Shown here: piece after piece, positions 28,972-53,491 of the stretch
Numbering within the stretch: position 1 is the first letter of the stretch
Layout: each line of letters opens with the position of its first letter
Assembly: GCA_002862545.1 (NCBI GenBank)
Contig: PKDJ01000181.1
Span: 115-64,114 of the forward strand
DNA from: Pseudomonadota bacterium
GTDB lineage: Bacteria; Myxococcota_A; UBA796; GCA-2862545
DNA length: 64,000 nucleotides
Direction: 5' to 3'
The notes under the pieces: model-generated
What the model was told of the DNA's origin: nothing
The model's input: the letters and a program-made list of their open reading frames with translations, nothing else
Databases searched by the model: none
Made by a program: the position numbers and the translations under genes

Positions 28972-30096
28972 TCAGCGCAGCGGCACGTCGAGGACGCTCT
29001 CCAGGTACCAGAGGATGAAGAGTACCTGCAGGTTGCAGCCGGAGCAGAAGAAGGTCTTGTCGCCCTCGTGCGCGGGACGTCCGTCGATCCAGTGGTGCAC
29101 GATCAGGCCGTCGTCGGGGCTGTAGAGGCGCTCGCGGATGCTCTGTAGCAGGCGGACCACCTCGTCGCGGTATGCGGCGTCGCCGGTGTGCTTGTAGAGC
29201 TCCATCAGGCCCATGATCAGGTAGTTCTGGCTCGACAGGGTGCTGTACTCGTCGGTCTGGGCGCCCTGGGAGACCTCGCTATAGGGCGAGCGGTAGAGCT
29301 CCATGCGCTCGTCCCACAAGGGCTGAATGCCCTCGAAGGTCTGCTCGGCCTGCCGGAGGTAGTGCGCATCCCCCGTGTGTTCGTACAGGCGGCAGAGCAC
29401 CAGCATCATGATGGCGTTCGGGTAGAGGTGGAGCCGCTCGACATCCGGCGCGAAGCGGTAGTGGTTGTCCTCGCGTGCCACGGTGTCGATGGTCTCGGTG
29501 ATCGCGGCAGCGCGGCTCAGCCACTCATCGCTGCGCTCGGCGTCGAGGTAGTGCGCATGCTGCAGGTAGATCACCGCGACGCCGCCGGTGACCGATGTCG
29601 GGCCATAGAGGTTGGAGGCAAACTCTCCGAGCTCGACCTCCATGTAGTCGCCAGCGAGGCGCACGATGGGGTCGAGCACGTCGATCAGGGCGTCGATGTC
29701 GGCGACGGCCTCGCTGGAGTCGGTCAAGCCGGCCCAGGTGATGGCCCCCTGGACAGCCATGAAGACCTCCTCGAGGTTTGCCGCGAGCCAGGCCAGATCC
29801 TCCGTGCCCTGTCGGACGACGTCGAGGTCTCGTTGCGCGGCCTCGTCCGCACGCGCGAGGTCGTCGGGTTGCTCCTCGGAGAGCCCGACGTGGGTGTAGT
29901 AGGTGGGGCCGAAGGCGGCAGCGTCGCCGTAGTCTTCCGTCCAGTCACCCTCGGCGTAGCCGAAGGCCTCGGCGTCGCTTCGCAGTGCTGTGTAGAAGTC
30001 GCCGAGTCCCTCGGTGGAGACGCGCATGGAGTCGGGCTCGGCGGCGGCACAGGCGCCGAGCATCACGGTCAGCAGGATGGACGCTCGTGTGTTCAT
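28972..30096 (-). CDS. Lipoprotein, (alpha/alpha)6-barrel-like (six-hairpin glycosidase / N-acylglucosamine-epimerase-like)
   Basis: Start taken at ATG 30096 (MNTRASILLTVMLGAC lipobox). Repeated helical pairs with Y..TGD..Y motifs (LYEHTGDAHYLRQAE; LYKHTGDAAYRDEV). The fold call is tentative. Confidence 0.55.
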   Translation of the reverse strand: MNTRASILLTVMLGACAAAEPDSMRVSTEGLGDFYTALRSDAEAFGYAEGDWTEDYGDAAAFGPTYYTHVGLSEEQPDDLARADEAAQRDLDVVRQGTEDLAWLAANLEEVFMAVQGAITWAGLTDSSEAVADIDALIDVLDPIVRLAGDYMEVELGEFASNLYGPTSVTGGVAVIYLQHAHYLDAERSDEWLSRAAAITETIDTVAREDNHYRFAPDVERLHLYPNAIMMLVLCRLYEHTGDAHYLRQAEQTFEGIQPLWDERMELYRSPYSEVSQGAQTDEYSTLSSQNYLIMGLMELYKHTGDAAYRDEVVRLLQSIRERLYSPDDGLIVHHWIDGRPAHEGDKTFFCSGCNLQVLFILWYLESVLDVPLR

Positions 30097-30323
30097 GCAG
30101 CCGTCGTATCGCACGTTGCCGGCGTCGTGCCCTCCGAACGATGCGACAGACATGCTCCAGAGTATTGTGTACATGACACATGATAGTCAGGAGTAGTCAA
30201 GGCCATGCAGGTCTCGCGTAGACTGGCTAGGTCGCCTACAGTCCTGGCGTGTTTCGTCGGTGAGTCACGCTCGCCGCTGCGTCGGGGCTTGTTGAGGGAT
30301 TGCTTGCTGATTGGAGGGCCGCG

Positions 30324-31538
30324 ATGGGTGAGAAAATCGTACTCATCGCCCCTGCGATTCGGCGCTACGACTGGGGCACGCAGGACGTGATCGCCGGCCT
30401 GCTCGGCGCAGCGGACCCCGAGAAGATTGCCGAGGCCTGGTTCGGTGCTCATCCACTCGCTCCGGCTCACGTCGAGGGCTGCGAGACGCCCCTGGATGCC
30501 TGGCTGGGAAGCGAGCAGCTTCCCTACCTGCTCAAGCTCTTGTCCGCCTCGCGGCCGCTGTCGATTCAGGTCCATCCCAACATCGAGCAGGCACGCGCAG
30601 GGTTCGCACGTGAGGAGGCCCTCGGCGTGCCTCGAGCCGCGCGCAATCGCAGCTATCGCGACGCATCGGACAAGCCCGAGCTGATGCTGGCCCTCACACC
30701 CTTCGAGGCGCTCGTGGGACTGCGGCCGCTGCCCGAGGTCGTGGCGCTGCTTGCAGGCCTCGGGGAGCTTCGAGCGCTGGCGCCGCAGCCCGAGGCCGAG
30801 CCCGCTGCGGTCCGGGCCTGGCTCGGTCGCTGGCTGTCTGCGAGGGAGGAGGAGCGGCGGACCATCCTCGCGGCGGTCGCGGATGCGCTCGACGCGCTCC
30901 CTGTTCCCGAGGCCAACCGCGACCTCTTTCGCGAGCTGCGTCTGACGGCGCACGACGCCGATCCCGGCCTGTTATTCGTGCTGCTGATGCGTCGGCTTGT
31001 CCTACAGCCTGGTGAGGCGATCTTCCTGCCGGCCGGGTGCGTCCATGCCTACGTGCGAGGGACGGGCATCGAGGTCATGGCCAGCTCCGACAACGTCGTG
31101 AGAGCTGGACTGACCAGCAAGCACATCGACACGGCGGAGTTCCTTCGGATCGCTGACCTCGAGAGTCCTGTGCCCGCCATTCTCCCCGGTCGTTCCACGG
31201 TCGATGGTCGAGAGCGCCTCTACGACACTCCTGCGCGTGCCTTCGAACTGTCCGTGCTCACGTTGACGTCGGGTCAGGGCATCGCGCGCCGCGCTTCCAG
31301 TCGAGAGACGCTGCTGAACATTGGAGAAGGCACGATCATTGGGCGGGGCGACGGCGGTGAGGTTCGGCTCGGCCGAGGTCAGGCATGTGTCGTGCCCGCA
31401 GGGGTCGAGCTGCGCTTGACAGCCGATCGCGACGCCACGTGCGTTCGGGTCACGGTTCCGTCTTCCCACGGGTCGTTCAGGTCAATATCGGCCGGCCAAG
31501 TTGACCAACCGGGGTCACTCGATGGAGCAGCCGCGTGA
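30324..31538 (+). CDS. manA: Mannose-6-phosphate isomerase, class I
   Basis: Start ATG 30324. YDWGT, AEAWFGAHP, LPYLLKLLSA..PLSIQVHPN, DKPELMLALTPFEAL and VHAYVRGTGIEVMASSDNVVRAGLTSKHID are the classic type-I PMI motifs. Confidence 0.9.
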   Translation: MGEKIVLIAPAIRRYDWGTQDVIAGLLGAADPEKIAEAWFGAHPLAPAHVEGCETPLDAWLGSEQLPYLLKLLSASRPLSIQVHPNIEQARAGFAREEALGVPRAARNRSYRDASDKPELMLALTPFEALVGLRPLPEVVALLAGLGELRALAPQPEAEPAAVRAWLGRWLSAREEERRTILAAVADALDALPVPEANRDLFRELRLTAHDADPGLLFVLLMRRLVLQPGEAIFLPAGCVHAYVRGTGIEVMASSDNVVRAGLTSKHIDTAEFLRIADLESPVPAILPGRSTVDGRERLYDTPARAFELSVLTLTSGQGIARRASSRETLLNIGEGTIIGRGDGGEVRLGRGQACVVPAGVELRLTADRDATCVRVTVPSSHGSFRSISAGQVDQPGSLDGAAA

Positions 31539-32710
31539 CGACCAACCGAAGCACGATCCCGGGAGTGGTCTTCTTCATGTCGTGGAGAGACATCAAGCAC
31601 CCGCGACACGGCGGCGCCGAGGTCTACACGCATCAGGTGTGCGAGCGCCTCGTGCGCAACGGCCTCACGGTCTGGCACTTCTCCGCCTCGTTCGAGGGCA
31701 GTGCCCGTGAGGAGATCATCGACGGTGTGCGCTACATCCGGCGCGGGAATCCGATCTCGGTGATCCCTCGCGCGATTCGGTTCTACCGCAAGCACCGTGA
31801 CCAGATCTCGCTCGTGGTCGAGCAGTGCAACACCCATCGGTTCTTTGGCCCGCTGTGGGCGCCGCCCGAGCGCCGCATCTTCTTCGTCCACCACCTCACC
31901 CGCACCCAGTGGTTCGAGCTGTGGCCGGCGGCACCGGCGGCGGCTGGCTACGCCGTCGAGGTCTTCGCCCTGTGGCTGAACAGGAAGGACCACACCATCA
32001 CGCCGTCTCCCTCGACGCGAAAGGACCTCGAGCGCATCCGCTACCGGCGCGTCATGGAGACGCCGCAGGGGATCGACATCGCGATCCGCGACCCGAGTGA
32101 GTTCGCGGAGAAGGAACCCGAGACCTTCATCTATGCGGGACGGGTGAACCCCTACAAGGGGGTACATCACGTGATCGAAGCGGTCGGCATGCTTCGCCGC
32201 AAGCGGCCCGGGGCGCGACTCTGGGTAGTCGGGCGCTACACCGACGAGACCTTCCACGAGTACCTCGAGCCAGCGATGGCGGCGCATGGACTCGACGCCA
32301 CCTTCGGCGAAGACGATGGCGGCGGGGCGGTGCACTTCTTCGGGTTCGTGTCCACGGAGCAGATGCACGACCTGATGGGGCGTGCCGTGGCTCTGCTGAT
32401 GGCCTCCTCCAGGGAGGGCTGGGGGTTGACCATCACCGAGTGCGCGGCCCTGGGAACACCCAGCATCGTGTGGCCGGCTCCGGGTGTGGTCGACGCCGTC
32501 GACTTCGGCCGTGCGGGCTACCTGTGCACGGCGCGCACCCTGCCGTGCATGGTCGCGGGAATGGAGCGTGCTCTCGACGACGCCGAGAGCTACGCGCGGG
32601 TGCGCAAGGCGGCGCACGAGTACTCGAAGGGCTTCACGCCCGATCGAGCCGCCGAGGCCTTTCAGTCGTGCTTGGAGCGGGTGTGGGAGAACGCATGCGC
32701 ATCGCAGTAG
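31535..32710 (+). CDS. Glycosyltransferase family 4 (GT-B)
   Basis: GTG start overlaps the manA stop (GTGA). GGAEVYTHQVCERLVRNG N-domain and the EX7E-type C-domain SSREGWGLTITECAALGTPSIV. Confidence 0.85.
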   Translation: MTTNRSTIPGVVFFMSWRDIKHPRHGGAEVYTHQVCERLVRNGLTVWHFSASFEGSAREEIIDGVRYIRRGNPISVIPRAIRFYRKHRDQISLVVEQCNTHRFFGPLWAPPERRIFFVHHLTRTQWFELWPAAPAAAGYAVEVFALWLNRKDHTITPSPSTRKDLERIRYRRVMETPQGIDIAIRDPSEFAEKEPETFIYAGRVNPYKGVHHVIEAVGMLRRKRPGARLWVVGRYTDETFHEYLEPAMAAHGLDATFGEDDGGGAVHFFGFVSTEQMHDLMGRAVALLMASSREGWGLTITECAALGTPSIVWPAPGVVDAVDFGRAGYLCTARTLPCMVAGMERALDDAESYARVRKAAHEYSKGFTPDRAAEAFQSCLERVWENACASQ

Positions 32711-33582
32711 CCATGAGCACCTTCAACGATGTCGACCGCACCTGCAGGGCGATCGACAGCGCGCTCCAGCAGGACATCGATGCCACCATCGAGGTCGTGG
32801 TCGCCGACGATGGCTCCGAGCAGGACGCGGTCGATGCTCTCGTCGCGGCCTACGGCGAGCATCCGCACGTGCATCTGCTCCTGTTGCCCCACCGTGAGCG
32901 GGGCTGGGCGCGACACAGTGCGATGGAGAAGGTCCTCGCACTCGAGCCGGACTACCTGCTCTTCATCGATGCCGACATGGTGCTTGACCTGTCGGCACTG
33001 TCCGTGTGTGTCGACACCGCGAACAGAGAGAGTGCGGGTGCCGTTGTTCTGCGAGAGCGCCCCTTCTCCTCGTCCACGAACTACGCGACGCGGGTGAAGG
33101 TCTTCGAGCGCATGGTGATCAACAACGCGGGTGCTCAGATGGGATCCGACGCCATCGATGCCGCCCGCTTCTGGACCTTGCAGGCCTACGAGGAGAGCGG
33201 TGGCCTCGACCCTCACGAGATCAGCTTCGAGGAGATCCAGCCCACCATCCGGTACAGGCGCCGAGGAGGCAGGGTGGTCCGGGCCGAGGGCCTGTTGCTC
33301 TCCCACGACGAGAAGCACGTGACCTGGGAGAACCTGTTCGGAAAGAAGTCCGAGTACTTCGCGGCGATGCACACCACGGCGTCCCGCGAGGAGCAAGGGG
33401 TCCTCGACATGGTGCGCCGCTGGTATCCCTTCCGGCGGGTGTACTACGAGCGGGCCAACCTGCGGGCCTACCGTGACAATCCTTCTCTCGCAGCGGGCAT
33501 GGTCGCCATGTACGGCGGACTCACTGCGCTCGCGGTGTCCAACCTGCTGCGGGAGCAGCTGCGCGAGCGGCGGGCGGGTTGA
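32695..33582 (+). CDS. Glycosyltransferase family 2 (GT-A)
   Basis: ATG 32695 overlaps the GT4 end by 16 nt. IAVAMSTFNDVDRTCRAIDSALQQ..IEVVVADDGS and LLFIDADMV (DxD) motifs. Hydrophobic C-terminal segment. Confidence 0.8.
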   Translation: MRIAVAMSTFNDVDRTCRAIDSALQQDIDATIEVVVADDGSEQDAVDALVAAYGEHPHVHLLLLPHRERGWARHSAMEKVLALEPDYLLFIDADMVLDLSALSVCVDTANRESAGAVVLRERPFSSSTNYATRVKVFERMVINNAGAQMGSDAIDAARFWTLQAYEESGGLDPHEISFEEIQPTIRYRRRGGRVVRAEGLLLSHDEKHVTWENLFGKKSEYFAAMHTTASREEQGVLDMVRRWYPFRRVYYERANLRAYRDNPSLAAGMVAMYGGLTALAVSNLLREQLRERRAG

Positions 33583-36500
33583 GTCTTCGGCTCGGAGCGC
33601 TGCTGCTCGCCACCTCGCTGTGGATGTGTGGCACAGAGGCGCAAGCGGCGGAGCGGCAGGACGCCATCGAGGCCTTCACGCGCGGTGACTGCGACGCCGC
33701 GCTGCGTGGATTCAAGGATATTTTCGAGGATCAAAGAACGTTCTCGAGCGGCCTCGATCTGGCGTACCACTACCGGGTGTGCCGCCAGCTCCCCAGCGCC
33801 AAGGAGGTGCTGGCGAGCATGCAGGAGGTCTGGCCCGAGCGCTACGAGCTCGCTCTCGAGCGGGCCCGGGTGGCTGAGGCGCTCGGCGACCGACGGTCCG
33901 CCATTCGGATCCTCAAGTCGGCGCCGGGTGATGCGGCTCGTCATCCGCAGGTCCTCGAGGCGCTGGCGGCGGTGCAGCTCCGGGCCGGCGATCCGTCGGG
34001 AACCATCGGGACGCTTCGAGGCGGAAGCGCCGTCCTGTTGTCGAGCAAGGCCTTGGCCTACCACTCGATGATGGCGGCTGCGCTCACCGAGCTTGGCCGT
34101 CATGCCGAGGCCGTCGACCACTGGCGAGAGGTGAGCTCGGCCCAGCCGCGTGATGCCACCGCCATCCGCAGTCTGGCAAAGGCGCTGGGCGCCTCCGGAG
34201 AAGCCGACGCGGCCATCTCCGTGCTGTCCGACGCCCTGGCTCGCCTCGGCGATCAGGGATCGCTCTGGCTCGATCTCGGCTTCCTGTACCTGGAGCAGGG
34301 AGCCATGGGCGATGCGGTTGAGGCGTTCGATAACGCAGAGGTGGCTTTTGTCGCGGCGGGGGACGAGGAGGGTGCGCAGGCGGTCGCAGAGTCACGTGTC
34401 CTCTCTCTGCGGGTGATCGCCAACGAGGCGCTCGCCGCAGGCGACATCGAGAGGGCGATCCGTACCCTCCAAGGAATCGCAGATCGGGATGCGTCAGTGG
34501 ACCTCTCGCTAGCGTATATGCACCGCCTCTCTGGCCAGTTCGATCGTGCGGGCGCCATCCTCGCGGGCCTACAGCCGACTGAAGACCTGGCCGTTCCTGT
34601 CGCTATGGAGAGAGCGGCGCTGTTCTCGGACCAAGGGGAACACGCCGCAGCCATCGCAGTGCTGGAGCCGGTGGTCGCGACGCTGCCCGCGGACACTCCG
34701 GCAGCGGCTCTCGCGCTCGGCTCACTGTACGTCAGGGCTCAGCTCGGGGAGACGCTGCTTGGCTTCGTCGCAGGGCTGGAGGCGAGAGGCTTCGATCTCC
34801 AGACGCCGGGCTTCCGAGCACTCGTGGCCGAGGGGCACACGCTGCTGGAGCAGCATGCACAGGCCGCCGAGGCCTGGCGCAGCTACGTCGCCATGTCGCC
34901 TGAGCTGCTGGATGGCTACCTCGCGCTGTCCCGCTCGCTGTTGGCGGCGGATGACACTGGGGAGGCCAGAGCGACCCTGGAGCTGGCTGCGCAGCGTCTG
35001 GCCGCGGAGGGCAGGCTGTCGATGGCTCGGGCGGGGCTCGCCCTCGATGTCGGTGACTTCACCACCGCCGAGGGCTTCTACCGCAGCGCGAAGCAGCAGT
35101 ATGTGGCCGAGGAGAACTCACAGGCTGCCGAGCTCGCCCAGCAGCAGGTTGCGCTGTCGATCTCGCTGCGCGCCGAGGGACTCGTGACTGCGCTGAATCA
35201 TGAGGGTGCCGTCGAGGCCTACGCGCTGGCCTACCTGGAGAGTCCGAGCGGGCCTGCGGCCCTGCGCTACGCGTACGCGCTCGAGCTTGTGGGTCGCCTC
35301 GGCGATGCCGAGGAGGTCTACGTCGAGGGCCTCGAGCGATTCCCGACGTACTTGGAGCTCGCGCTCGGCTTTGTCGATCTGCTGCTGCTGCAGCAGCGCC
35401 AGCAAGAAGCGCTGGGCATCCTGGAGAGGCACTCCACCGAGACGGTGAGTGTCTCGCGGCGGCTCGCACAGGTCTACCTGGGCCTCGGTCGCTTCGAGGA
35501 CGCCATTCGGATCGCAGAGTCGACGCGCAGCGCGGTCATCTTGAGTGACCTGCTGGCGGTAGAGGCCACGGCCTACCTCGGGCTCCGCGAGCGGGAGCGC
35601 GTCCTCGAGGTCTGGCGCCGCGCGATCCGAGAGATCCCGGACGACCTGCCGCTGCGGCTCGAGCTCGTCTACGCCCTTGGGCGTCGCCAGCAGTACGCGT
35701 CTGCTGAGGAGGTCCTCGCTCGGGCCGAGGCGGACCTGCCGGCTGACGGACGCACGGCGCTGGCGCGGGCCTGGCTCTGGCTGTCTCGCGGGGTGCCGAG
35801 CCGTCGTCGGGTGTGGGCGAGGGTGGCCGCTCGGCAGCTCGAGGCCTCTCCGCCGCCTGCAGAGATCTTCGCGCACTACCTGACGCTCGCGCGGGCGTAC
35901 ACCTACGCAGACGAGCCAGTGCTCGCTCTCGACGCCATCGAGCGGGCGGCGACAGATCCGCTGGCGCGGCGCAGGCCGCTCGAGCAGAAGGGCTGGCTCG
36001 CGGTCTGGGAGAAAGACCAGTGGTCTGCCATGGAGACGTTCGAGTACCTGCACGCCCTCGAGCCACTCAACCCGACGCCGCTGATCTCGATGTACCAAGT
36101 GGCGGTCAGCCAACATGCGCACGGTCTGGGAGTTGCGCTCGAGAAACGGGCGCTGGAGTCTTCGGGGGGCCGAGAGACCGCAGTGAGTCAGCTGCACGAT
36201 CTGGGTGTGCGCACTTACGGCTACCGTCCTTTGCCTTGGCTCGGGGTGGCCCTCGATGGAAGCCATGGGATCGGTCGCGCCTCTGCGATCGAGCTTCGTC
36301 GGGCTACCTTGCTCGGGAGCGCGTTCCAGGCGTATCAGGTGCGAAGCAGCGCGCTCGACGTTCGATCGGCTGGCTATGTCCAAGGCCTTCCTGCCATAGA
36401 GCTTGGGTACGGGCTGGTGTCACAGCGTCAGGATGTCGAGTCCGAGAGCCACGTCGTGCGGCTGGCGATCAATGATGGTGCGCCGACGAGCCTCGGGACC

Positions 36501-37178
36501 ATCCTGTGGGGCGTCGACATCTCAGCGGGGGTGTTCGACAGCCGACTGGCCGGCGCCTCGGTTCAGCTGCTCGACTCGGAGTCGGTGTCCCTCGGTCTCA
36601 TGCCACGCCACACCGCACACACGGTGACGATGCGGGCCATGCGTGGCCGCCAAGTCGGTAACGCTGTGTTGCCGGATCAGCGCTACTGGCGGGCCGAGGT
36701 CGAGGACATCGTGCAGCTCGCCCATGTGCGCGGCGCTGTGCGACTGCGTCAGAGCTGGGTGAACTTGCCGGATGACATGCGGGTCAACTCGACCAGCCTG
36801 GACGGCTCGGTCGTTCCGGCTATCATGGGCATCGTCATGGGCGGACCCGTCGTTGGTGTGGAGCGGGACGTAGTGGACGACTCGGCTGCTCTGGTGACCA
36901 GACTAGGAGGAGAGCTGACGTCTGGAGTCAGGCTGCGCAATGTGACGCCCGGACTGTTGGTGCAGCACGAGGCGGTGGTTGGTAGTCCCCAGTACAGTCG
37001 CCTGACTCTCGATGCCGGCCTGAAGGTCACCCTCGAAGCAGCCCTTCGAACCCACCGAGCGGGCAGGCTGCATGTGGCGAAGTCGCCGCTGCTCTTCAAC
37101 CTTGGGGCGCGGTTCGTCGACTACAAGGACGAGGCGCTGCGGGACTCCGTCACCCTCTCATTGGGACTGGAGCTGTGA
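33579..37178 (+). CDS. Large TPR-repeat protein with putative C-terminal outer-membrane beta-barrel (BcsC/PgaA/PelB-like architecture)
   Basis: 1199 aa. The TTG start overlaps the GT2 stop (TTGA). Signal LGALLLATSLWMCGTEAQA. About 800 aa of TPR-like helical repeats follow, then ~380 aa with alternating beta-strand-like pattern (..VRLAINDG..VSLGLMP..VTLSLGLEL). The barrel is inferred, not demonstrated. Confidence 0.7.
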   Translation: MSLRLGALLLATSLWMCGTEAQAAERQDAIEAFTRGDCDAALRGFKDIFEDQRTFSSGLDLAYHYRVCRQLPSAKEVLASMQEVWPERYELALERARVAEALGDRRSAIRILKSAPGDAARHPQVLEALAAVQLRAGDPSGTIGTLRGGSAVLLSSKALAYHSMMAAALTELGRHAEAVDHWREVSSAQPRDATAIRSLAKALGASGEADAAISVLSDALARLGDQGSLWLDLGFLYLEQGAMGDAVEAFDNAEVAFVAAGDEEGAQAVAESRVLSLRVIANEALAAGDIERAIRTLQGIADRDASVDLSLAYMHRLSGQFDRAGAILAGLQPTEDLAVPVAMERAALFSDQGEHAAAIAVLEPVVATLPADTPAAALALGSLYVRAQLGETLLGFVAGLEARGFDLQTPGFRALVAEGHTLLEQHAQAAEAWRSYVAMSPELLDGYLALSRSLLAADDTGEARATLELAAQRLAAEGRLSMARAGLALDVGDFTTAEGFYRSAKQQYVAEENSQAAELAQQQVALSISLRAEGLVTALNHEGAVEAYALAYLESPSGPAALRYAYALELVGRLGDAEEVYVEGLERFPTYLELALGFVDLLLLQQRQQEALGILERHSTETVSVSRRLAQVYLGLGRFEDAIRIAESTRSAVILSDLLAVEATAYLGLRERERVLEVWRRAIREIPDDLPLRLELVYALGRRQQYASAEEVLARAEADLPADGRTALARAWLWLSRGVPSRRRVWARVAARQLEASPPPAEIFAHYLTLARAYTYADEPVLALDAIERAATDPLARRRPLEQKGWLAVWEKDQWSAMETFEYLHALEPLNPTPLISMYQVAVSQHAHGLGVALEKRALESSGGRETAVSQLHDLGVRTYGYRPLPWLGVALDGSHGIGRASAIELRRATLLGSAFQAYQVRSSALDVRSAGYVQGLPAIELGYGLVSQRQDVESESHVVRLAINDGAPTSLGTILWGVDISAGVFDSRLAGASVQLLDSESVSLGLMPRHTAHTVTMRAMRGRQVGNAVLPDQRYWRAEVEDIVQLAHVRGAVRLRQSWVNLPDDMRVNSTSLDGSVVPAIMGIVMGGPVVGVERDVVDDSAALVTRLGGELTSGVRLRNVTPGLLVQHEAVVGSPQYSRLTLDAGLKVTLEAALRTHRAGRLHVAKSPLLFNLGARFVDYKDEALRDSVTLSLGLEL

Positions 37179-38413
37179 GCCCGCTGTCGCACGCACGGGG
37201 CTGGCTTCTGAGGCGGCAAGAGGTCCTGTACCCTGCCCTCGATGGCGTCAGCTTCGTGCTGCTCTACGTCTACCTGGTGCTGGCGGGCAACTGGGTGGAT
37301 GCGTCGGCCTTTGGTCAGCTCAACAGCTTGACCGCACTGCTGACTTTTCTTGCTGCGGCGGGTGCGGCCATCCAGTTCATCGTGGCCCGGCGCCTGGCCC
37401 GCGATGTCTCGACACCGCTCGGTGATCTCTGGGTGCTGGACGCGGCGCTCACCCTCCCGCTCGTGCTGCCCTTCCTGCTGCCGCTGCCTGAGGCGTGGCG
37501 TCTGTCAGCCGTGGACACGGTCGGGCCGGTCAGCTTCGCTGCGCTGGTGCTCGTGGCTGCGCAGATTGGTGTGTTCCGAGGTGTCCTTCAGGGGCGCCAG
37601 CGCTTCTTTGCGCTGTGGGCGAGCCAGCTCGCGGGCCATGTCGCGCGGCTCGCTGTGTTGGTCGCCGTGGCAGCCGGAGGGGCGACCCTCGCGACGGTCT
37701 GGTGGTCCGTGATCGCTGCTGAGGTTGCGCACTTGGTGGCCGTGGTCATTGCCTGTCAGTCGGCTGGCGGGGACCTGTGGACGAGGATTCGGCCGATCCC
37801 GGTGCGCCGGGATGTGGTGGTCGACGTGCTGCGGGTCTGCGCAGCCCAGCTCGCCGTGGCGGGCTTGCTCTCCGTCGACCTGATCTTGGCGGGAGAGAAC
37901 CTCGGTGCCGAGAGTGGAGCCTTCGCGACGGCGAATCGATTCGGTCGCGTGTTCTGCTTCCTCAGTGCGAGCGTGGCCGTGGTCCTCCTACCCCGCTTTG
38001 CGCGTCAGCAGTCCGCGGGACGTGGCCTCGGCACGCTGACGCTCGGAGCTGCGGCGGTCAGCGTGCCCGTGTCGCTGGTGGGCGCGGTCGTGCTGGTGCC
38101 GCTCATGCGCTGGATGTTTCCTGATGCAGTCGTCCCGAGCACCGCGCTCACGGTCTGGGAGCTCGGGGCCAACCTTGGCCTCGCCGTGATTCAGGTCTTG
38201 GTGACCTGGCATGTTGCCCAGTCCAGACGCTGGTACGCGGTCATCGTGGGGCTGGCCGGGGTGGTCTTGGTCGCTGCTCTACAGCTCGGACCCGCCACAC
38301 CGCTGTACTATGCTCAGGCCAGCCTGGTGGTCTTCTGGATGACCGCACTCGTCCTCTCTCGCGCCGACGTGACGACCGACACCGTGGAGTCCGAGGCCAT
38401 CGACGCCCCATGA
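37175..38413 (+). CDS. Polytopic membrane protein, MOP/Wzx-type oligosaccharide flippase-like
   Basis: 412 aa. The GTG start overlaps the upstream stop (GTGA). About 12 predicted TM helices with the size and composition of polysaccharide-biosynthesis (Wzx/MurJ superfamily) proteins. No diagnostic motif. Confidence 0.6.
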   Translation: MSPLSHARGWLLRRQEVLYPALDGVSFVLLYVYLVLAGNWVDASAFGQLNSLTALLTFLAAAGAAIQFIVARRLARDVSTPLGDLWVLDAALTLPLVLPFLLPLPEAWRLSAVDTVGPVSFAALVLVAAQIGVFRGVLQGRQRFFALWASQLAGHVARLAVLVAVAAGGATLATVWWSVIAAEVAHLVAVVIACQSAGGDLWTRIRPIPVRRDVVVDVLRVCAAQLAVAGLLSVDLILAGENLGAESGAFATANRFGRVFCFLSASVAVVLLPRFARQQSAGRGLGTLTLGAAAVSVPVSLVGAVVLVPLMRWMFPDAVVPSTALTVWELGANLGLAVIQVLVTWHVAQSRRWYAVIVGLAGVVLVAALQLGPATPLYYAQASLVVFWMTALVLSRADVTTDTVESEAIDAP

Positions 38414-41400
38414 ACGCCCACCGGCGCGCCCGACTGCCGCTCTCTGTCGACCTCGCTACTGCGGCGGTGGTCGGCTTGGCCATCGCGCCCATGCTGTTCG
38501 GGGGCACGGTCACCTTCACGGACCTCACCTTCGGGCGGACGACCGACCGCGTCCTCGACAGCGTGGGCAGTGTGTTCAATGCGCACCTGAGCACGGCGAA
38601 CTGGTTCAACCTCCCGCGCTTGCCCTTTGTGGCGGTCGCCAAGGTCTTTGCCGACATCTTCGCGGGAGGCGACGCGAGTGTCTTTCTGTGGGCCATGACC
38701 ACAGTCACCCTCACGCTCGGCGCCTGGGGCGTGATGCGGCTCGCTCACGATGTGGCCGCTGCGCGGCCGGGACGCACCCTCAGTCCTGCCATTCTCGTGC
38801 TCGTTGGACTGGTCTATGCGCTGAATCCCTGGTCAATTCAGCGCATTCAGCACATCTACCTGCTCTGTGGGTATGCCCTCTACCCCTGGGTCTGGTGGCT
38901 CGCGCTGCGCTCCTGGGGCCCACAGACCTGGCGACGAGCGGGTGGCTTCGTCGTGCGGCCTCGGGCGGACGACCTGGTCTACATGATGGGTCTGGGTGCC
39001 GCTGTCGCGGTCAGCTTCGCCGGGGTGCACTTCGGATTCTTGAGTGGACTCACGCTGGTTCCGGTGGGTCTCGGCTGCGCGGTGTGGGCGCTGACCGATG
39101 CGGTCAAGCAGAGGACCATCGGCCGCTGGCTCGCCTTCTTTGCCGTTCGTGCTGCAGTGCCGGCAGTCTCTTTCGGCGCGTTCGCCGCCTACTGGAGCTG
39201 GCCGCTCGTGTCAGGCATCCTCAACCAGGTGCGACCCAGCCAGTTCAACGTCAACGCCTACGAGAACATCATCCTCTTCAGTCGCTACAGCGACCTGACG
39301 AGCGTGCTCTCGGCGTCGAGCTACTGGTGGCCCATGGTACCCCTCGAGACCTTCGGGGAGGCCAGCGGCCCGGCGGCGATCCTGCTGTGGTCGCTCGCGC
39401 TGATCGGTGTGGCTCGACTGCGAGAGCTGCCGCTGGCGGTACCGGTTGGCGGACTGGTCGTGCTGGCCACGGGAGCCCACTACCCTGCGCTGGCGGAGAA
39501 CTACCTCGGGCTGGTCTTCGAGCTGCCCTATCCACTCGGCGACATGCTGCGCGATCCCAACAAGATCGTGGGCGTCTTGCTGCTGGCGCTCTGCCTGATG
39601 CTGGCACGGGGGCTGTCGCGAATCGACGACGGCGGATGGGCGGGGCGTCTGCTTGGCCCGGTGCTGGGCGTAGCGGCCTGGCTCGTGTGGGTCCTTCCCT
39701 TCTGGCGTGTCTACATGCTGGGATTCTACCTTCCGGTCGACTGGCCGGCCCAGCAGATCGCGCTCTCCGAGCACCTGCGCTCCCTCCCGACCGAGGCGCG
39801 GGTGCTCTACCTACCGCTGGCCAACGAGGTCATCGATCCGAGCCTGGGCTTCAGCTCTCCAGACTTCAACACCGTGACAGTCGAGGGGCGTGAGATCGCC
39901 AAGGCGACGGCTGACTTTGCGATCGTCGACAGCCCACGCGACACGGTCTTTCCCTACGAGGGCAACCCCATCTCGGTAGAGCGGATGCTGGTCTATCTGC
40001 ACGAGGTCCTCGAGCGCGGCGATGTCGAGGCCTTCGGTGACCTCGCTCGGGCGCTTGGCGTCACCCACGTGGTCCACCGGAGCAGCTATGCGAGCCATCG
40101 GGATCGCCTGCTTCGAGAGCAAGAACTCCTCTCGCGGCAGCCAGATCTCACCGAGACCTGGTCGTCCGGCGACATCCGGGTGTACACCGTCGAAGACGCG
40201 GAGACGACTGCACGGGTGCTGCAGCGTGTGGTCTACACGACGGCTGACCAGGAGCACCTCACGACGCTCCGGCGGCTGCTCGGCTGGCGCGCGTCCGAGA
40301 CCGGGCATGTCTTTGCTGCCCAGTCTTCAGGCACGACGATGTCCGTCCTTGGGCCGGGGGACTGGGTCGATGTCTCGTCCCGCCATGCTCTCCTGCTGGC
40401 TCAGGTCCCCAGCGACCAGCTCGTCGCGCCTGCCGATCACATGAGCGAGGGCCGCCCCTCTGTGGGGTGGGCGAAGGGGTACCTGCAGGGCCCGGATCTG
40501 GAGTGGCAGCTCGAGCTTGCCGGGGCTGGAGACGCCGTGATTGGCGCTGATCTGTCGATGCCACAGGTCTTCACCTCCAGCGCGCGCCGCTTGATCATGC
40601 CCTCGTGGGAGGAGGCTTCGGCGCTTCGCGTGCCGTTGATCGACGAGTCGGCCTGGCAGGATGTCGAAGGGGTCCCCACCGCGGAGGTGCTCGACGTCGA
40701 GCCGCTCATGCTCGAGGTGAATGGTGTGCGCATGCGCTGGTCGACCACGGAGACCGAGGGTCAGGCGGGTCGTCAGTGGTCCGTGGTCTCGCAGTCCTTT
40801 CCCCTCGCGGGTGGTCGTGCCCATGCCCTGCAGGTTGAGGTCGAGGGCGCTGTGGAGCCTGGGGTCGTCGTGCGGGTGGTCTGCATGGACGAAGAGGGCA
40901 GGACGCTCGGCAGTCAGGTACTCGCGCTGGTGCACGATCCGGGCGGGCGGGGGACCGTCCACAGGTCCTTCATCACGCCGACCTGGGCGACGCAGGCCCG
41001 GGTCGAGCTGATCGGTCCGGGTGATGCACCGAGTCTGGGCTGGTCTGTGAAGGACCTCTCTCTCGGGCAGTACGTCGATGGGGATGCGCCGAATCTTCTG
41101 ACTGTGCCCATGGACGTCCCCTCTGGCTCGGGAGCGCTCTGGGTGCGGGCACTCTGCTCTCGCGGTGGAGGAGTGCTTCGCGTTGCTATCGGCGCGACGA
41201 GCACGACCCTGGACACACGCTGTCCGGCGTCTCCACGCCTGAAGTGGTTTCGCGCGGAGGGCCTTCAGGGGCCTGCGGACAGACTGTCGATCAGCAACGA
41301 GGGGGGCTTCAACAGCGTCAATGCGCTCACCTGGATGACGCCCGAGGATGAAGCCGCGCTGGAAGAGGGCCTCGCTGCGGGGCTCGAGGACAAGCGCCTG

Positions 41401-42540
41401 CTGGCGATTCGGGACCTCTGGGAGGATGGCGAGTGGTCGGGTGCGCTTCGGAGTGGCCGTGCCGATCCCCGCTGGACAGCTGGGCGAACCCTGCGATCCG
41501 TGAGAGGCGAGGCCACCGTCTCGCTCTGGGTACCGCGAGACGGGGTGTATGACCTCGTGGTCAACGACGAGGTGCCGCCAGGCGGGGAGTACGGGCTGGA
41601 GGTGGTCGATCCGTCCGGTGCCCGTGTGTTCGAGACCGTCGTCGCGCATGATGGCGCGGAGGGGGTGCGGCAGCTCGAGAGGCTCTCGCTGGAGCGCGGG
41701 ACCTACACGGTGAGCGCTCGCTTTAGGGCGGATCCCGAGGGCACGTTGAGCTGGGACGCGCTCTCGTCGCCGGGAACGCGATGGTTCGTCCGGACCAGCC
41801 CCGAGCAGAGGCGCATTCGGCGCATGGCGGGCAGCAGCACGGAGACCCAGGCAGTCCTCTTGACGCCCGAGGTGCCGGTCATGCCTGGCGAGCAGGTCCT
41901 CGTTGGCTTTCGCTACCACCTGCACGGAGGGCGAGATCTACACGCCCGTTTTCGCTTTCTCGATGCGTCTGGGCACAACATCGCGACGCGGGTCGACCGC
42001 TTCCCCAGGCGCTGGTCCGCGCACTCGGATCGCGTCGCAACCGTGGTCGAGCCACCACCAGGAGCGACGGCGCTCGTCACGGAGCTCGCATTCTCACCTG
42101 GAGAGGCGACTGACCGGGATTCCTACCTCGATGTCTTCGACTTCGAGCTGTGGACTGAGGAACGTGGGATTGCGCTCGACAGCGTGGTCCTGATCCAGGC
42201 CGATCGTTCGGCCGCTGCTGACGCCTCCCGGGTCGAGGTCGTCGAGAGTGAGGGCGGGACGCGTCGCCTGCGAGTGCAGGGAGGTGAGGGCCGGCTGCTC
42301 GAGCTGCTGGAGACTCCCAACCGGCTGTGGACAGCGAGCGAAGACGGTGCAGCACGGCCGACCTTGTCGGTCCGTGGAACCTCGGTCGGGATTCGGCTGG
42401 AGGAGGATGACGCCGGTGTGGTGTTCACGGTTCCTTACGACGCCATCCATCGGCGTGGCGTCTGGGTCAGCAACATCAGCGCCCTCGGTCTCTTTGGGCT
42501 CTGGGGTGTCACGCTGTGGCGGCGTCGTCAGAGCAGGTAG
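38410..42540 (+). CDS. Giant membrane protein with GT-C-like N-terminal polytopic domain, large periplasmic jelly-roll/CBM-like region and C-terminal TM anchor (AftD/DUF3367-like architecture)
   Basis: 1376 aa. The ATG overlaps the flippase stop (ATGA). About 12-14 TM helices in the first ~480 aa. A soluble module follows containing ..LGVTHVVHRSSY.., and two beta-sandwich-like segments (e.g. VVRVVCMDEEGRTLGSQV..ARVELIGPG and VGFRYHLHGGRDLHARFRFLDASGHN..). Final TM VWVSNISALGLFGLWGVTLWRRR. Confidence 0.7.
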   Translation: MNAHRRARLPLSVDLATAAVVGLAIAPMLFGGTVTFTDLTFGRTTDRVLDSVGSVFNAHLSTANWFNLPRLPFVAVAKVFADIFAGGDASVFLWAMTTVTLTLGAWGVMRLAHDVAAARPGRTLSPAILVLVGLVYALNPWSIQRIQHIYLLCGYALYPWVWWLALRSWGPQTWRRAGGFVVRPRADDLVYMMGLGAAVAVSFAGVHFGFLSGLTLVPVGLGCAVWALTDAVKQRTIGRWLAFFAVRAAVPAVSFGAFAAYWSWPLVSGILNQVRPSQFNVNAYENIILFSRYSDLTSVLSASSYWWPMVPLETFGEASGPAAILLWSLALIGVARLRELPLAVPVGGLVVLATGAHYPALAENYLGLVFELPYPLGDMLRDPNKIVGVLLLALCLMLARGLSRIDDGGWAGRLLGPVLGVAAWLVWVLPFWRVYMLGFYLPVDWPAQQIALSEHLRSLPTEARVLYLPLANEVIDPSLGFSSPDFNTVTVEGREIAKATADFAIVDSPRDTVFPYEGNPISVERMLVYLHEVLERGDVEAFGDLARALGVTHVVHRSSYASHRDRLLREQELLSRQPDLTETWSSGDIRVYTVEDAETTARVLQRVVYTTADQEHLTTLRRLLGWRASETGHVFAAQSSGTTMSVLGPGDWVDVSSRHALLLAQVPSDQLVAPADHMSEGRPSVGWAKGYLQGPDLEWQLELAGAGDAVIGADLSMPQVFTSSARRLIMPSWEEASALRVPLIDESAWQDVEGVPTAEVLDVEPLMLEVNGVRMRWSTTETEGQAGRQWSVVSQSFPLAGGRAHALQVEVEGAVEPGVVVRVVCMDEEGRTLGSQVLALVHDPGGRGTVHRSFITPTWATQARVELIGPGDAPSLGWSVKDLSLGQYVDGDAPNLLTVPMDVPSGSGALWVRALCSRGGGVLRVAIGATSTTLDTRCPASPRLKWFRAEGLQGPADRLSISNEGGFNSVNALTWMTPEDEAALEEGLAAGLEDKRLLAIRDLWEDGEWSGALRSGRADPRWTAGRTLRSVRGEATVSLWVPRDGVYDLVVNDEVPPGGEYGLEVVDPSGARVFETVVAHDGAEGVRQLERLSLERGTYTVSARFRADPEGTLSWDALSSPGTRWFVRTSPEQRRIRRMAGSSTETQAVLLTPEVPVMPGEQVLVGFRYHLHGGRDLHARFRFLDASGHNIATRVDRFPRRWSAHSDRVATVVEPPPGATALVTELAFSPGEATDRDSYLDVFDFELWTEERGIALDSVVLIQADRSAAADASRVEVVESEGGTRRLRVQGGEGRLLELLETPNRLWTASEDGAARPTLSVRGTSVGIRLEEDDAGVVFTVPYDAIHRRGVWVSNISALGLFGLWGVTLWRRRQSR

Positions 42541-43796
42541 TCCCCGTCCTCGAACTCCCCGAGCAGTACGTTTCCGTCCACGAAGGTGGAGACGTTGCCG
42601 CTGTCGGCCTCGGCGCGCACGGCATGAGAGGCCAGGCCGGACACGTTGGCCAGGGTGTTCGACTCGATGGCCGTCTCGATGACCTCCTCCTGGAGGAACA
42701 CGGCGGCGATCCCATCGCAGGACCACTCGAACGCGGACGACAGCGCGGCGCACAGGGCGCTGTCCTGGATGGTGTTGTCGGTGATGAGGGAGCGGTCGCT
42801 CCGCAGCAGGTAGACGCCGTCGTAGAAGCTGCTGTCGATCAGGTTCCCCTGCACCGTCAGGTCCGAGGCGCCGTCGACCTCGATGCCGAACAGGCCACTG
42901 TTGACCACCACGTTGTCGAGCAGGGCCAGGCCGGGGCTGCGTGTGGTCACGTCGACCGGGTGGATGTCCTGTGGGCCGATCCGAATGCCGCTCGCGGCGC
43001 TGTCACGGATGGTGTTGCGCTCAACCGTCAGGTCGAAGCTCGGCAGGTTGATGGTCAGCCCGGGACCCGGTGCATCGGCGATCCAGTTGTCGATGACCGT
43101 GCTGTCGCGGCAGAGGAAGATGTTCAAGGTGCCGTCGATGACGTTGTCTTCGACGAGGCCCTCTTGCTGGCCGGCGAACACCATCGCGTCGCCGGCATGG
43201 CCGGACTGGATCTCGTTGCGTGCGATCACGTTGTTGGTGTTCAGAGCGCTGGTAGCGGTCAGATCGTCCAGGGTCCCGGCCGTGTGCTCGGGGCCTGCCG
43301 CGTAGACGGCCCACCGCTTGGTCGAGCCCAGGAAGCGGCTGTCCGTGACCACGGTATCGTCGACATCACCGAGGACGAGGGCGGCTTGAGCCTTGGCGGT
43401 CATGGCATCGATCGTGACGCCGGACAGGTGTGCACCGTCGGCGTAGATCCGCAGGCCGTCCGCGTTGGGATCGGCTTGGACGAGCACGACAGCGTCGGCA
43501 TCCTCGCCGACCATCCACACATCCTCCTCCGTGATGGTGAGAGGACCGTCGAGAACGTACTCTCCGGCGAGAATCTGGATGCGTCGCTCACCGGCGTCCA
43601 GGGCTTCCTCCGGGTGGAGGTAGTCGCCAGAGCCAGCCGCATCCACGATGACCCAGTCTAGGTCGCTGTCGGGCGGCTCCAGGGCAGACGGGGCGAGGCG
43701 GAGCCCCTCGTCAAGAGCCGTGGTGGCCTCATCCATCGTCGCGCAGCCCGTGATGAGCAGGGCGGCGAGCCAGCCATAGAGATGGACAGAGTTCAC
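42528..43796 (-). CDS. Lipoprotein with right-handed parallel beta-helix repeats (pectate-lyase/NosD/AlgG-like fold)
   Basis: 422 aa. Lipobox LLITGC. Repeated N/D-rich beta-helix rungs (NVIARNEIQSG.., VEDNVIDGT.., VIDNWIAD.., VERNTIRDS.., LLDNVVVNS.., VQGNLIDSS.., ITDNTIQDS..). Its 3' end overlaps the convergent giant gene by 13 nt. Confidence 0.8.
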   Translation of the reverse strand: MNSVHLYGWLAALLITGCATMDEATTALDEGLRLAPSALEPPDSDLDWVIVDAAGSGDYLHPEEALDAGERRIQILAGEYVLDGPLTITEEDVWMVGEDADAVVLVQADPNADGLRIYADGAHLSGVTIDAMTAKAQAALVLGDVDDTVVTDSRFLGSTKRWAVYAAGPEHTAGTLDDLTATSALNTNNVIARNEIQSGHAGDAMVFAGQQEGLVEDNVIDGTLNIFLCRDSTVIDNWIADAPGPGLTINLPSFDLTVERNTIRDSAASGIRIGPQDIHPVDVTTRSPGLALLDNVVVNSGLFGIEVDGASDLTVQGNLIDSSFYDGVYLLRSDRSLITDNTIQDSALCAALSSAFEWSCDGIAAVFLQEEVIETAIESNTLANVSGLASHAVRAEADSGNVSTFVDGNVLLGEFEDGDYLL

Positions 43797-44771: not shown

Positions 44772-45599
44772 TCAGCCGACCTTCCGCCGCGGCATCGCCA
44801 CGCCCGGCGTGATGACCATGCGGCGCCGATGGGCGGCGAGCGAGTCCAGCAGGTACACGCCGAGGGACCGATTCCGGGCGATCTGAAGCGCGGAGAGGGA
44901 CAGCTGCAGGCCGTCTCGCACAGCGTTCACGGTGGAGGGGTCGTCTGCGAGCCGGTAGCGAACCGGCACAGACTCGATCGTGAAGCCCTGCTCAGCCGCG
45001 ATCACGAGGAGCTCGATGTCGAACGCGAAGCGCGTGACCGTGAGGTACTCGAAGATGTGGACCGCTTCCCGGCGGAAGCCCTTGAGGCCTGCCTGCGTGT
45101 CCTCGACGCAGGTGAGACCCAGGCGTCGAAGCACGTTGTTGAGGATGCGACCGTTGCGCTCGCGGCGGTTGGCCTGATCGAGTGTCGCCGTGCGCACCTC
45201 GGCGACGCTGTTCGTCGCTCGACGGTTGGCGATCACGACGTCGGCTCCGCCGATGAGCCGCTCGAGGAGCGTGTCGATCTCCGTGAGTGGGTACGCGAGG
45301 TCACAGTCCGTGAACACGCAGTACCGCCCGCGGGTCTCGCGCATGCCCTGGCGGACCGCACCACCCTTGCCGACATTTCTCGGCAGCCGGATGAGGGTGA
45401 CCCCGCTCCGGTGCGCGATGAACTCAGCCAAGCGGCTGCCGGTAGCATCGCTGCTGCCGTCGTCGACGATGATCAGCTCGCAGATCTCGGGTCGGTCGTC
45501 GAGGTACTCGAGGACCTCGGCGATGCGGGGGACGATCCACGACTCACAGTTGTAGACGGGCACAACGAGGGACAAGAAGACCCGGGCTTCGCTCAACAT
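44772..45599 (-). CDS. GT2 polyprenol/dolichol-phosphate sugar synthase-like glycosyltransferase (Ppm1/DPM1/ALG5-like)
   Basis: 275 aa. LSLVVPVYNCESWI, LIIVDDGSSDAT, RLPRNVGKGGAVRQGM, VFTDCDLAYP, TQAGLKGFRR and RFAFDIELLVIA..GFTIESVPVRY are collinear with polyprenyl-phosphate glycosyl synthases. Confidence 0.8.
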   Translation of the reverse strand: MLSEARVFLSLVVPVYNCESWIVPRIAEVLEYLDDRPEICELIIVDDGSSDATGSRLAEFIAHRSGVTLIRLPRNVGKGGAVRQGMRETRGRYCVFTDCDLAYPLTEIDTLLERLIGGADVVIANRRATNSVAEVRTATLDQANRRERNGRILNNVLRRLGLTCVEDTQAGLKGFRREAVHIFEYLTVTRFAFDIELLVIAAEQGFTIESVPVRYRLADDPSTVNAVRDGLQLSLSALQIARNRSLGVYLLDSLAAHRRRMVITPGVAMPRRKVG

Positions 45600-53394: not shown

Positions 53395-53491
53395 GGAGAC
53401 TCCGGACGGGCGGAGTGTACTCGCAGAAGGTGCAACAGTCCGAGCGGTGGCGGCGCCTGGTGATAAGGCGGGCGGAGCCGACGGAGCCTGG

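Follow-up and report, generated by a model that had tools for sequence, protein, structure and literature searches.

A giant membrane protein outside the Actinobacteria, related to mycobacterial AftD and encoded with a conserved glycosyltransferase and flippase gene module

What does a 1376-residue membrane protein do when it resembles mycobacterial AftD, an arabinofuranosyltransferase, and is encoded in a genome from outside the Actinobacteria? The gene lies at 38410..42540 on the plus strand of the window, the 64,000-nucleotide stretch of contig PKDJ01000181.1 that was analysed here (assembly GCA_002862545.1, 6.19 Mb in 378 contigs, 88% complete; the window, with a G+C content of 66-72%, is on contig 5). 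A literature search for AftD homologues outside the Actinobacteria returned the AftD structure paper alone, in which homologues are reported only from 12 orders of the class Actinobacteria (bioRxiv 10.1101/2019.12.22.885152). An earlier note on this DNA had drawn the likeness to AftD from architecture alone. Profile comparisons and structural modelling support the view that the giant protein is a remote homologue of mycobacterial AftD with a GT-C fold. It is not a member of the Pfam family GT-C_AftD and represents an unnamed sister family with a conserved gene module of its own.

Homologues were collected by running phmmer exhaustively over 1.84 billion cluster representatives (a prior word-based search had given only one relative). 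The family comprised 112 proteins at E ≤ 1e-3, of which 55 reached E ≤ 1e-30; most were 1400-1550 residues long. Homologues were full-length and colinear at 21-34% identity, which indicates that the ORF is a genuine gene. The models named for comparison in the earlier note (DUF3367/AftD, PMT_2, YfhO) all failed to match. At E ≤ 10 the giant protein (P0001) was matched neither by PF11847 (GT-C_AftD, DUF3367; gathering threshold 26 bits) nor by YfhO (PF09586), PMT_2 (PF13231) or the other Pfam GT-C families, and its sole Pfam-A match at that threshold was a chance hit of 12.5 bits. Assignment to YfhO or PMT was rejected for want of a match to either Pfam model. A PDB search with the single sequence was also empty, so the protein could be linked to AftD only by profiles and by fold search.

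A profile of 61 family members was aligned using hhalign to P0173, a bona fide AftD-family protein (PF11847, E 3.9e-113), at a probability of 97.5% and E 6.3e-12 over 490 columns (query 23-578). Alignment to residues 22-600 of the Mycobacterium abscessus AftD chain gave 89.8% and E 1.7e-6 over 501 columns. Searched against the PDB, the profile matched AftD (6W98/6WBX, E 1.9e-5) through the last beta-sandwich and the following transmembrane (TM) helix, with profile positions 1323-1452 falling on AftD chain residues 1152-1280; AftD was the only significant PDB match. Among 5.8 billion proteins the profile reached an 'arabinofuranan 3-O-arabinosyltransferase' (E 4.6e-12) and a protein with PF11847 and F5/8-C domains (E 1.3e-8).

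Two template-free AlphaFold models were generated, covering residues 1-720 (pLDDT 86.4, pTM 0.88) and 600-1376 (pLDDT 83.0, pTM 0.81), using a multiple sequence alignment of 69 family sequences that contained no AftD sequence. Foldseek placed AftD (6W98_A) first for the N-terminal model (E 5e-10, TMq 0.56, 722 columns), followed by STT3, AglB, PglB, ArnT, Pmt4, AftB and EmbB. The C-terminal model matched multi-jelly-roll proteins resembling carbohydrate-binding modules (CBMs), including tandem CBM22 and GH101 accessory domains, and AftD at E ~6e-8. Because neither AftD sequences nor templates entered the modelling, the Foldseek result is independent of the sequence result. The earlier note had staked its comparison on some match or superposition to a GT-C enzyme; Foldseek finds that fold, and what had been a call from architecture is now backed by hhalign, by the PDB profile match and by Foldseek.

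The AftD GT-C fold is defined by the juxtamembrane helices JM1 and JM2 between TM1 and TM2 and by a long TM7 plus JM3 (bioRxiv 10.1101/2019.12.22.885152). All of these elements, together with the 11-TM super-domain and its periplasmic domain, are present in the AlphaFold model. The membrane module (residues 1-439; 38410..39726, plus strand) was assigned 11 TM helices from the model and from positive-inside analysis. Its helices span residues 11-29, 48-52, 65-85, 89-117, 126-137, 140-169, 186-234 (two spans), 237-271, 283-291, 319-337, 340-353, 384-406 and 410-439. Two juxtamembrane helices (48-52 and 65-85) are modelled in outer loop 1, and the long TM7 (237-271) is followed by a JM3-like helix (283-291). 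The next domain, a predicted periplasmic alpha/beta domain belonging to the GT-C super-domain (residues 440-700; 39727..40509, plus strand), was defined from the model and, to residue 586, from hhalign. It contains the conserved motifs KATxD (498-502) and EGN (517-519) and an LGVTHVV strand (549-555). The signature LGVTHVVHRSSY (549-560), which the earlier note had assigned to a periplasmic module, corresponds to this conserved strand and is aligned to 'GISYLVVRNDL' of AftD.

About five beta-sandwich (jelly-roll/CBM-like) modules follow (40708..42429, plus strand), supported by AlphaFold, Foldseek and the profile match, with approximate bounds at residues ~767-889, 892-976, 996-1107, 1126-1249 and 1254-1340. 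The protein ends in a TM helix (residues ~1342-1370, modelled as helical to 1375) and a basic cytoplasmic tail, RRRQSR (42433..42537, plus strand). The earlier description was thus correct as to a polytopic N-terminus, a soluble region with beta-sandwiches and a single C-terminal anchor before RRRQSR. Two details needed adjustment: the polytopic part is slightly shorter than the ~480 residues proposed, with its 11 TM helices in residues 11-439, and 'at least two' beta-sandwiches was too low a count. For the 61 members, Lys and Arg together amounted to 0.17-0.44 per residue in loops and tails predicted to be cytoplasmic, against 0.05-0.08 in those predicted to be outer loops. This contrast places the large soluble region of ~900 residues (440-1340) outside the cytoplasm, as the earlier note had assumed, and supports a predicted topology with the N-terminus and the RRRQSR tail inside.

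Residues D38, Y136, N139, R145 and P159 were invariant in the 61-member alignment, and Q147, H148, H207, N280, N282, SYWW (304-307) and R381-D-x-N-K385 nearly so. The invariant polar residues are all on the predicted outer face. In AftD, K39, D41, E251, K361 and D474 are essential and W272 is 100% conserved (bioRxiv 10.1101/2019.12.22.885152); PDB chain numbering was taken as paper numbering plus 3, deduced from K-x-D at 42-44, E at 254 and K at 364. Asp38 (38521..38523, plus strand; codon checked) lies ~8 residues after TM1 in outer loop 1 and is a candidate catalytic or metal-binding residue; a search for a conserved acidic residue in this loop had been proposed in the earlier note. In two hhalign alignments Asp38 falls on AftD K39 or one position from D37, and thus within 1-3 positions of D37/K39/D41. 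The outer loop 4 motif, N280-x-N282...E285...S291...S304-Y-W306-W-P308-M (39247..39333, plus strand; alignment and hhalign), contains W306-W-P308, an exact match to W272-x-P of AftD; AftD E251 is aligned to Y284, which adjoins the conserved E285, an offset of one. The third motif, R381-D-P-N-K385 with R, D, N and K invariant (39550..39564, plus strand; alignment and hhalign), aligns as L-R381-D-P-N-K385 residue for residue to L-R357-N-V-H-K361. As aligned, two anchor positions correspond well to the AftD residues and two others only roughly.

The giant gene is the sixth in a run of genes on the plus strand (30300-42540). The run starts with manA (30300..31538), which encodes a class I mannose-6-phosphate isomerase (TIGR00218, 184.7 bits, above cut-off), and continues with a GT4 glycosyltransferase gene (31535..32710), a GT2 gene of ~295 codons (32695..33582), a gene for a secreted 1199-residue tetratricopeptide repeat (TPR) protein with a C-terminal domain of unknown fold (33579..37178) and a gene for a 412-residue MOP/Wzx-like flippase candidate (37175..38413; a weak PF01943 match, with orthologues carrying PF01943). 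Neighbours are joined by 4-nt overlaps (GTGA, TTGA, GTGA, ATGA), except for GT4 and GT2, which overlap by ~16 nt; the start ATG of the giant gene overlaps the upstream stop as ATGA. The overlaps indicate a run coupled in translation, with the giant gene at its end, immediately behind that for the MOP-type protein, and the position given in the earlier note (last in the operon, right after the flippase) holds. The mechanical ORF of the GT2 gene starts at 32440 and is 85 codons too long, its Arg-rich extra part overlapping the GT4 gene. Translation more likely begins at the ATG at 32695, which has GGAGAA in front of it; the product then has ~295 residues, the length of the orthologues. Beyond the run, on the minus strand (44772..45599), a 275-residue GT2 resembling polyprenyl-phosphate-sugar synthases has its best matches to AglJ, Dol-P-hexose transferase, PgfS, PpgS and ArnC, and on this similarity is a candidate maker of a lipid-phosphate-sugar donor.

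Gene contexts were compared by tblastn of the window cluster proteins against related loci, combined with precomputed Pfam calls; loci of the closest subfamily were retrieved with a 12-sequence subfamily alignment. The same module of five genes (giant GT-C, Ppm-like GT2, MOP protein, GT4 and ~295-residue GT2) was found in all nine contexts read; it recurs in the window, in four contexts from diderm metagenome-assembled genomes (MAGs) and in five genomes of Bacillota or Fusobacteriota. A GT2 of the polyprenyl-phosphate-sugar-synthase type and a flippase are encoded in all contexts, the MOP protein adjacent or fused. Orthologues of GT4 are present in every module at 40-53% identity to the window protein (45-53% in the diderm MAG loci L002, L003/L005, L006 and L009; 40-46% in the Bacillota loci L013 and L014), as are those of the ~295-residue GT2 at 39-55% (49-55% in the same diderm loci; 39-42% in L013 and L014). 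MOP identities are 31-33% and 25%, respectively. The Ppm-like GT2 is 36-50% identical in diderm loci, where its gene is directly upstream of the TPR gene (L003/L005/L009); its counterpart in the Bacillota and Fusobacteriota loci, L013 and L014 included, is a GT2 of 370-384 residues in the analogous place. These monoderm GT2s also match AglJ, Dol-P-hexose transferase, PgfS, PpgS and ArnC best. All five gene types are also present in Propionigenium, Clostridium manihotivorum and Peptoclostridium.

In P0003, the closest homologue (1800 residues, five contigs), a MOP protein and the giant protein form a single in-frame chain with the MOP part at the N-terminal end (L003:10001-15403, also L004 and L005; a 'Proteobacteria bacterium' MAG and ENA metagenomes). 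The MOP protein of the window is 32-33% identical to its syntenic orthologues and to the fused copy. This fusion is strong evidence that the MOP and giant proteins work together. Genes of the GDP-mannose pathway are adjacent in four of the nine contexts: ManA in the window, ManC in Paenibacillus and Propionigenium, and ManC with phosphomannose isomerase in Exiguobacterium. The TPR protein, which has a signal peptide, accompanies the module in diderms only (21-23% identity in the diderm MAG loci, absent from L013 and L014). It has weak PgaA/PrsT-type TPR matches; a PDB search gave generic TPR matches only, with no beta-barrel or porin domain demonstrated, and the protein is a candidate outer-membrane export or scaffold component.

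Two observations concern single loci of the family. The Myxococcota MAG Co_bin_513 encodes two full-length paralogues, of which L009 is accompanied by the whole module and L010 by no partner genes within 10 kb (tblastn). A protein of ~360-406 residues with no Pfam match is encoded directly upstream of the giant gene in three monoderm or fusobacterial loci (L015:7767-8984, L017:5058-6278 and L016:7941-9032) and may be a further partner.

On this evidence it is reasonably probable that the giant protein, a remote homologue of AftD with a GT-C fold, is a periplasmic glycosyltransferase that uses a lipid-phosphate-sugar donor and works with its module partners. It would most likely build a surface polymer, which probably contains mannose. 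In the proposed scheme, a lipid-linked primer would be built by the cytoplasmic GT4 and GT2, and a hexose would be loaded onto polyprenyl phosphate by the Ppm-like GT2; mannose is favoured because the ManA/ManC genes are linked. The lipid-linked sugar or sugars would be carried across the membrane by the MOP protein. The giant protein would then transfer the sugar from the polyprenyl-phosphate donor to a growing glycan at the outer membrane surface, at a putative site formed by Asp38, Glu285 and Arg381/Lys385. Its activity may be processive or branching, with the chain held by the approximately five CBM-like beta-sandwich modules, as the earlier note had suggested. Onward passage or scaffolding in diderm hosts could be the part of the 1199-residue TPR protein.

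Several results weigh against this scheme. No GT-C model of Pfam or NCBIfam matched the protein even at E ≤ 10. Asp38 and Glu285 are off by 1-3 alignment positions from AftD D41 and E251, and D474 of AftD is aligned to the non-conserved R494/E495, without a convincing equivalent. The scores of the Ppm-like GT2 are all far below equivalog cut-offs, and mannose genes are absent from the flanks in five of nine contexts. The conserved module has no priming phosphoglycosyltransferase, and the acceptor is thus not indicated. The usual cargo of MOP flippases is a pyrophosphate-linked oligosaccharide, and this would suit a donor of another kind.

Such a donor is central to the alternative that survives best, although it is on balance unlikely: the giant protein would accept a polyprenyl-pyrophosphate-linked oligosaccharide, built by GT4 and GT2 and flipped by the MOP/Wzx-type protein, and act as a polymerase or en bloc transferase in the manner of Wzy, WaaL or PglB on a protein, lipid or wall acceptor. 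The giant gene is always linked to one for a MOP-type flippase, the two proteins being fused in one lineage, and Pfam scans of the cluster found no Wzy-like, chain-length-regulator or O-antigen-ligase gene that could take this part; among the ORFs scanned at 22469-49628, those without a family match aside, there was no Wzy polymerase, chain-length regulator or priming phosphoglycosyltransferase. Foldseek also matched the oligosaccharyltransferases STT3, AglB and PglB, and because PglB and STT3 are GT-C enzymes too, the fold alone cannot decide the matter. The lack of a priming phosphoglycosyltransferase in the module tells against a pyrophosphate donor as well, and the constant Ppm-like GT2 would be left without a client enzyme. 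The donor of AftD, the nearest relative by sequence and by fold, is a monophosphate (bioRxiv 10.1101/2019.12.22.885152). In the Haloferax AglD/AglR/AglS system a MOP-like protein serves a Dol-P-mannose route (PMC3871713).

Much less probable is a non-catalytic, GT-C-derived scaffold or carbohydrate sensor of envelope or polymer status, with ligands bound by the beta-sandwiches. The idea draws on the setting of the Bacillota and Fusobacteriota copies. In Paenibacillus (L013), Propionigenium (L015), C. manihotivorum (L016) and Peptoclostridium (L017) the module is interleaved with histidine kinase, histidine phosphotransfer (Hpt) and response-regulator genes, an arrangement that suggests the polymer is under phosphorelay control. 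One member is named '7TM-DISM domain-containing protein' by NCBI, and AftD itself acts in regulation and complex formation with TmaT (bioRxiv 10.64898/2026.07.31.741936). Against this, the invariant polar and charged residues at the outer surface are aligned at or near AftD residues essential for function, the cytoplasmic tail has only 6 residues and no signalling domain, and the myxobacterial-type loci have no two-component genes next to the module. A sensor or scaffold is unlikely: invariant charged residues are aligned at or near AftD active-site positions, and there is no cytoplasmic output domain.

An AftD orthologue proper, that is, an arabinofuranosyltransferase using decaprenyl-phosphate-arabinose, would explain the architecture, fold and shared motifs, yet it is barely credible and was rejected, since PF11847 is not matched, identity to AftD is about 15-20%, the four-helix bundle (TM13-16) is missing, arabinan is not known from the hosts and the linked sugar genes are those of mannose.

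The preferred reading, a lipid-phosphate-sugar-dependent transferase of a sister family, was compared with known systems. With AftD (Rv0236c family; PF11847; PDB 6W98/6WBX/6WBY) the giant protein shares the 11-TM GT-C super-domain, the JM helices, the periplasmic alpha/beta domain, a length of ~1400 residues, the R-x-x-x-K motif (R357/K361) and the invariant Trp of outer loop 4 (EL4). Both have several beta-sandwiches, the last followed by a TM helix (re-entry TM12 in AftD), and the last beta-sandwiches are homologous. They differ at the C-terminus, where AftD has TM12 and an acyl-carrier-protein-binding bundle of four helices (TM13-16) whereas the giant family has a single TM helix, and in the number of modules (three CBMs and one beta-sandwich in AftD, about five beta-sandwich modules here). 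The giant family also differs in its hosts, which are Myxococcota-type MAGs, Bacillota and Fusobacteriota, and in its linkage to mannose rather than arabinan genes.

Three-component systems for extracytoplasmic glycosylation offer a parallel in gene content. In Haloferax AglD (GT2), AglR (MOP-like) and AglS (a Dol-P-Man mannosyltransferase), a synthase-like GT2, a MOP-type flippase and an outward-facing polytopic transferase are likewise co-encoded (PMC3871713). Other systems of this kind are GtrB/GtrA/GtrC and CsbB/GtcA/YfhO. Compared with such systems the giant transferase is about twice as large, has beta-sandwich modules, is accompanied by two extra cytoplasmic glycosyltransferases and does not match YfhO or PMT_2. 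The mycobacterial lipomannan/lipoarabinomannan pathway comprises the GT4 enzymes PimA and PimB, Ppm1, and periplasmic GT-C mannosyl- and arabinosyltransferases. Its logic is similar, with GT4-type steps, a synthase of the polyprenyl-phosphate-mannose type, GT-C extension and a nearby GH76-family protein; the likeness is at family level only. The 1199-residue TPR protein recalls the synthase-dependent exporters (PgaA, BcsC, AlgK/AlgE, PelB) in its weak PgaA/PrsT-type matches and its confinement to diderms. Unlike those of the exporters, its neighbours include no processive membrane GT2 synthase or cyclic di-GMP receptor, and no barrel was demonstrated.

Named members of the family are from the Bacillota (Paenibacillus, Brevibacillus, Exiguobacterium, Salimicrobium, C. 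manihotivorum and Peptoclostridium) and the Fusobacteriota (Propionigenium). All are labelled 'hypothetical protein', 'MFS transporter' or '7TM-DISM domain-containing protein' and are without a Pfam domain. P0123 (Propionigenium maris) is an 'MFS transporter' and P0155 (Exiguobacterium sp. CH10) a '7TM-DISM domain-containing protein' in NCBI; given the GT-C fold, both names are probably wrong. The closest subfamily (27-34% identity) is from MAGs labelled 'uncultured Myxococcota' and 'Proteobacteria bacterium'. Among 200 further genomes sampled from this phylum, none yielded a homologue of residues 1-600, and the gene is therefore patchily distributed there. A six-frame search of the 88%-complete source genome with PF11847 gave nothing, with Corynebacterium glutamicum positive as control. 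This result, the MAG relatives and a MYXO-CTERM protein in the window agree with the non-actinobacterial setting assumed from the start. The latter is an M6 metalloprotease (58796-61510, minus strand) whose C-terminal MYXO-CTERM match is exactly at the cut-off (20 bits), and it serves as a clue to the host lineage only.

Other genes were noted around the run. Just upstream of manA, on the minus strand (28972-30174), a 400-residue protein with a lipobox-like signal (MLGAC) matches GH76, the alpha-1,6-mannanase family, at 37 bits, above the Pfam cut-off; this GH76-like lipoprotein fits a mannose polymer. Convergent with the giant gene, and overlapping its 3' end by 13 nt, is a gene (42528-43796, minus strand) for a 422-residue right-handed beta-helix protein (Beta_helix/NosD repeats) with a lipoprotein-like signal (LLITGC), which may cleave or modify glycans in this pathway. 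A 951-residue membrane ORF (53336-56191, plus strand) gave no match to Pfam or NCBIfam and shows no relation to the giant family (hhalign probability 0.3%). An Rfam scan of the window gave no match.

AftD is both essential and a drug target, and its distant sister family in Bacillota that are harmless and can be cultivated (Paenibacillus, Exiguobacterium, Brevibacillus) would offer a simpler system in which to study how giant GT-C enzymes use CBMs. We suggest, tentatively and at somewhat less than even confidence, that AftD-type enzymes are not an actinobacterial speciality and that an ancient, portable five-gene pathway makes a lipomannan-like or mannan-type polymer of the outer face in Bacillota, Fusobacteriota and myxobacteria-like diderms, with TPR-mediated export added in diderms and phosphorelay control in monoderms. 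The family points to an undescribed surface polymer whose genes are at present labelled 'hypothetical', 'MFS transporter' or '7TM-DISM', and the five-gene module, together with the flippase-transferase fusion, provides a concrete and testable model of its pathway.

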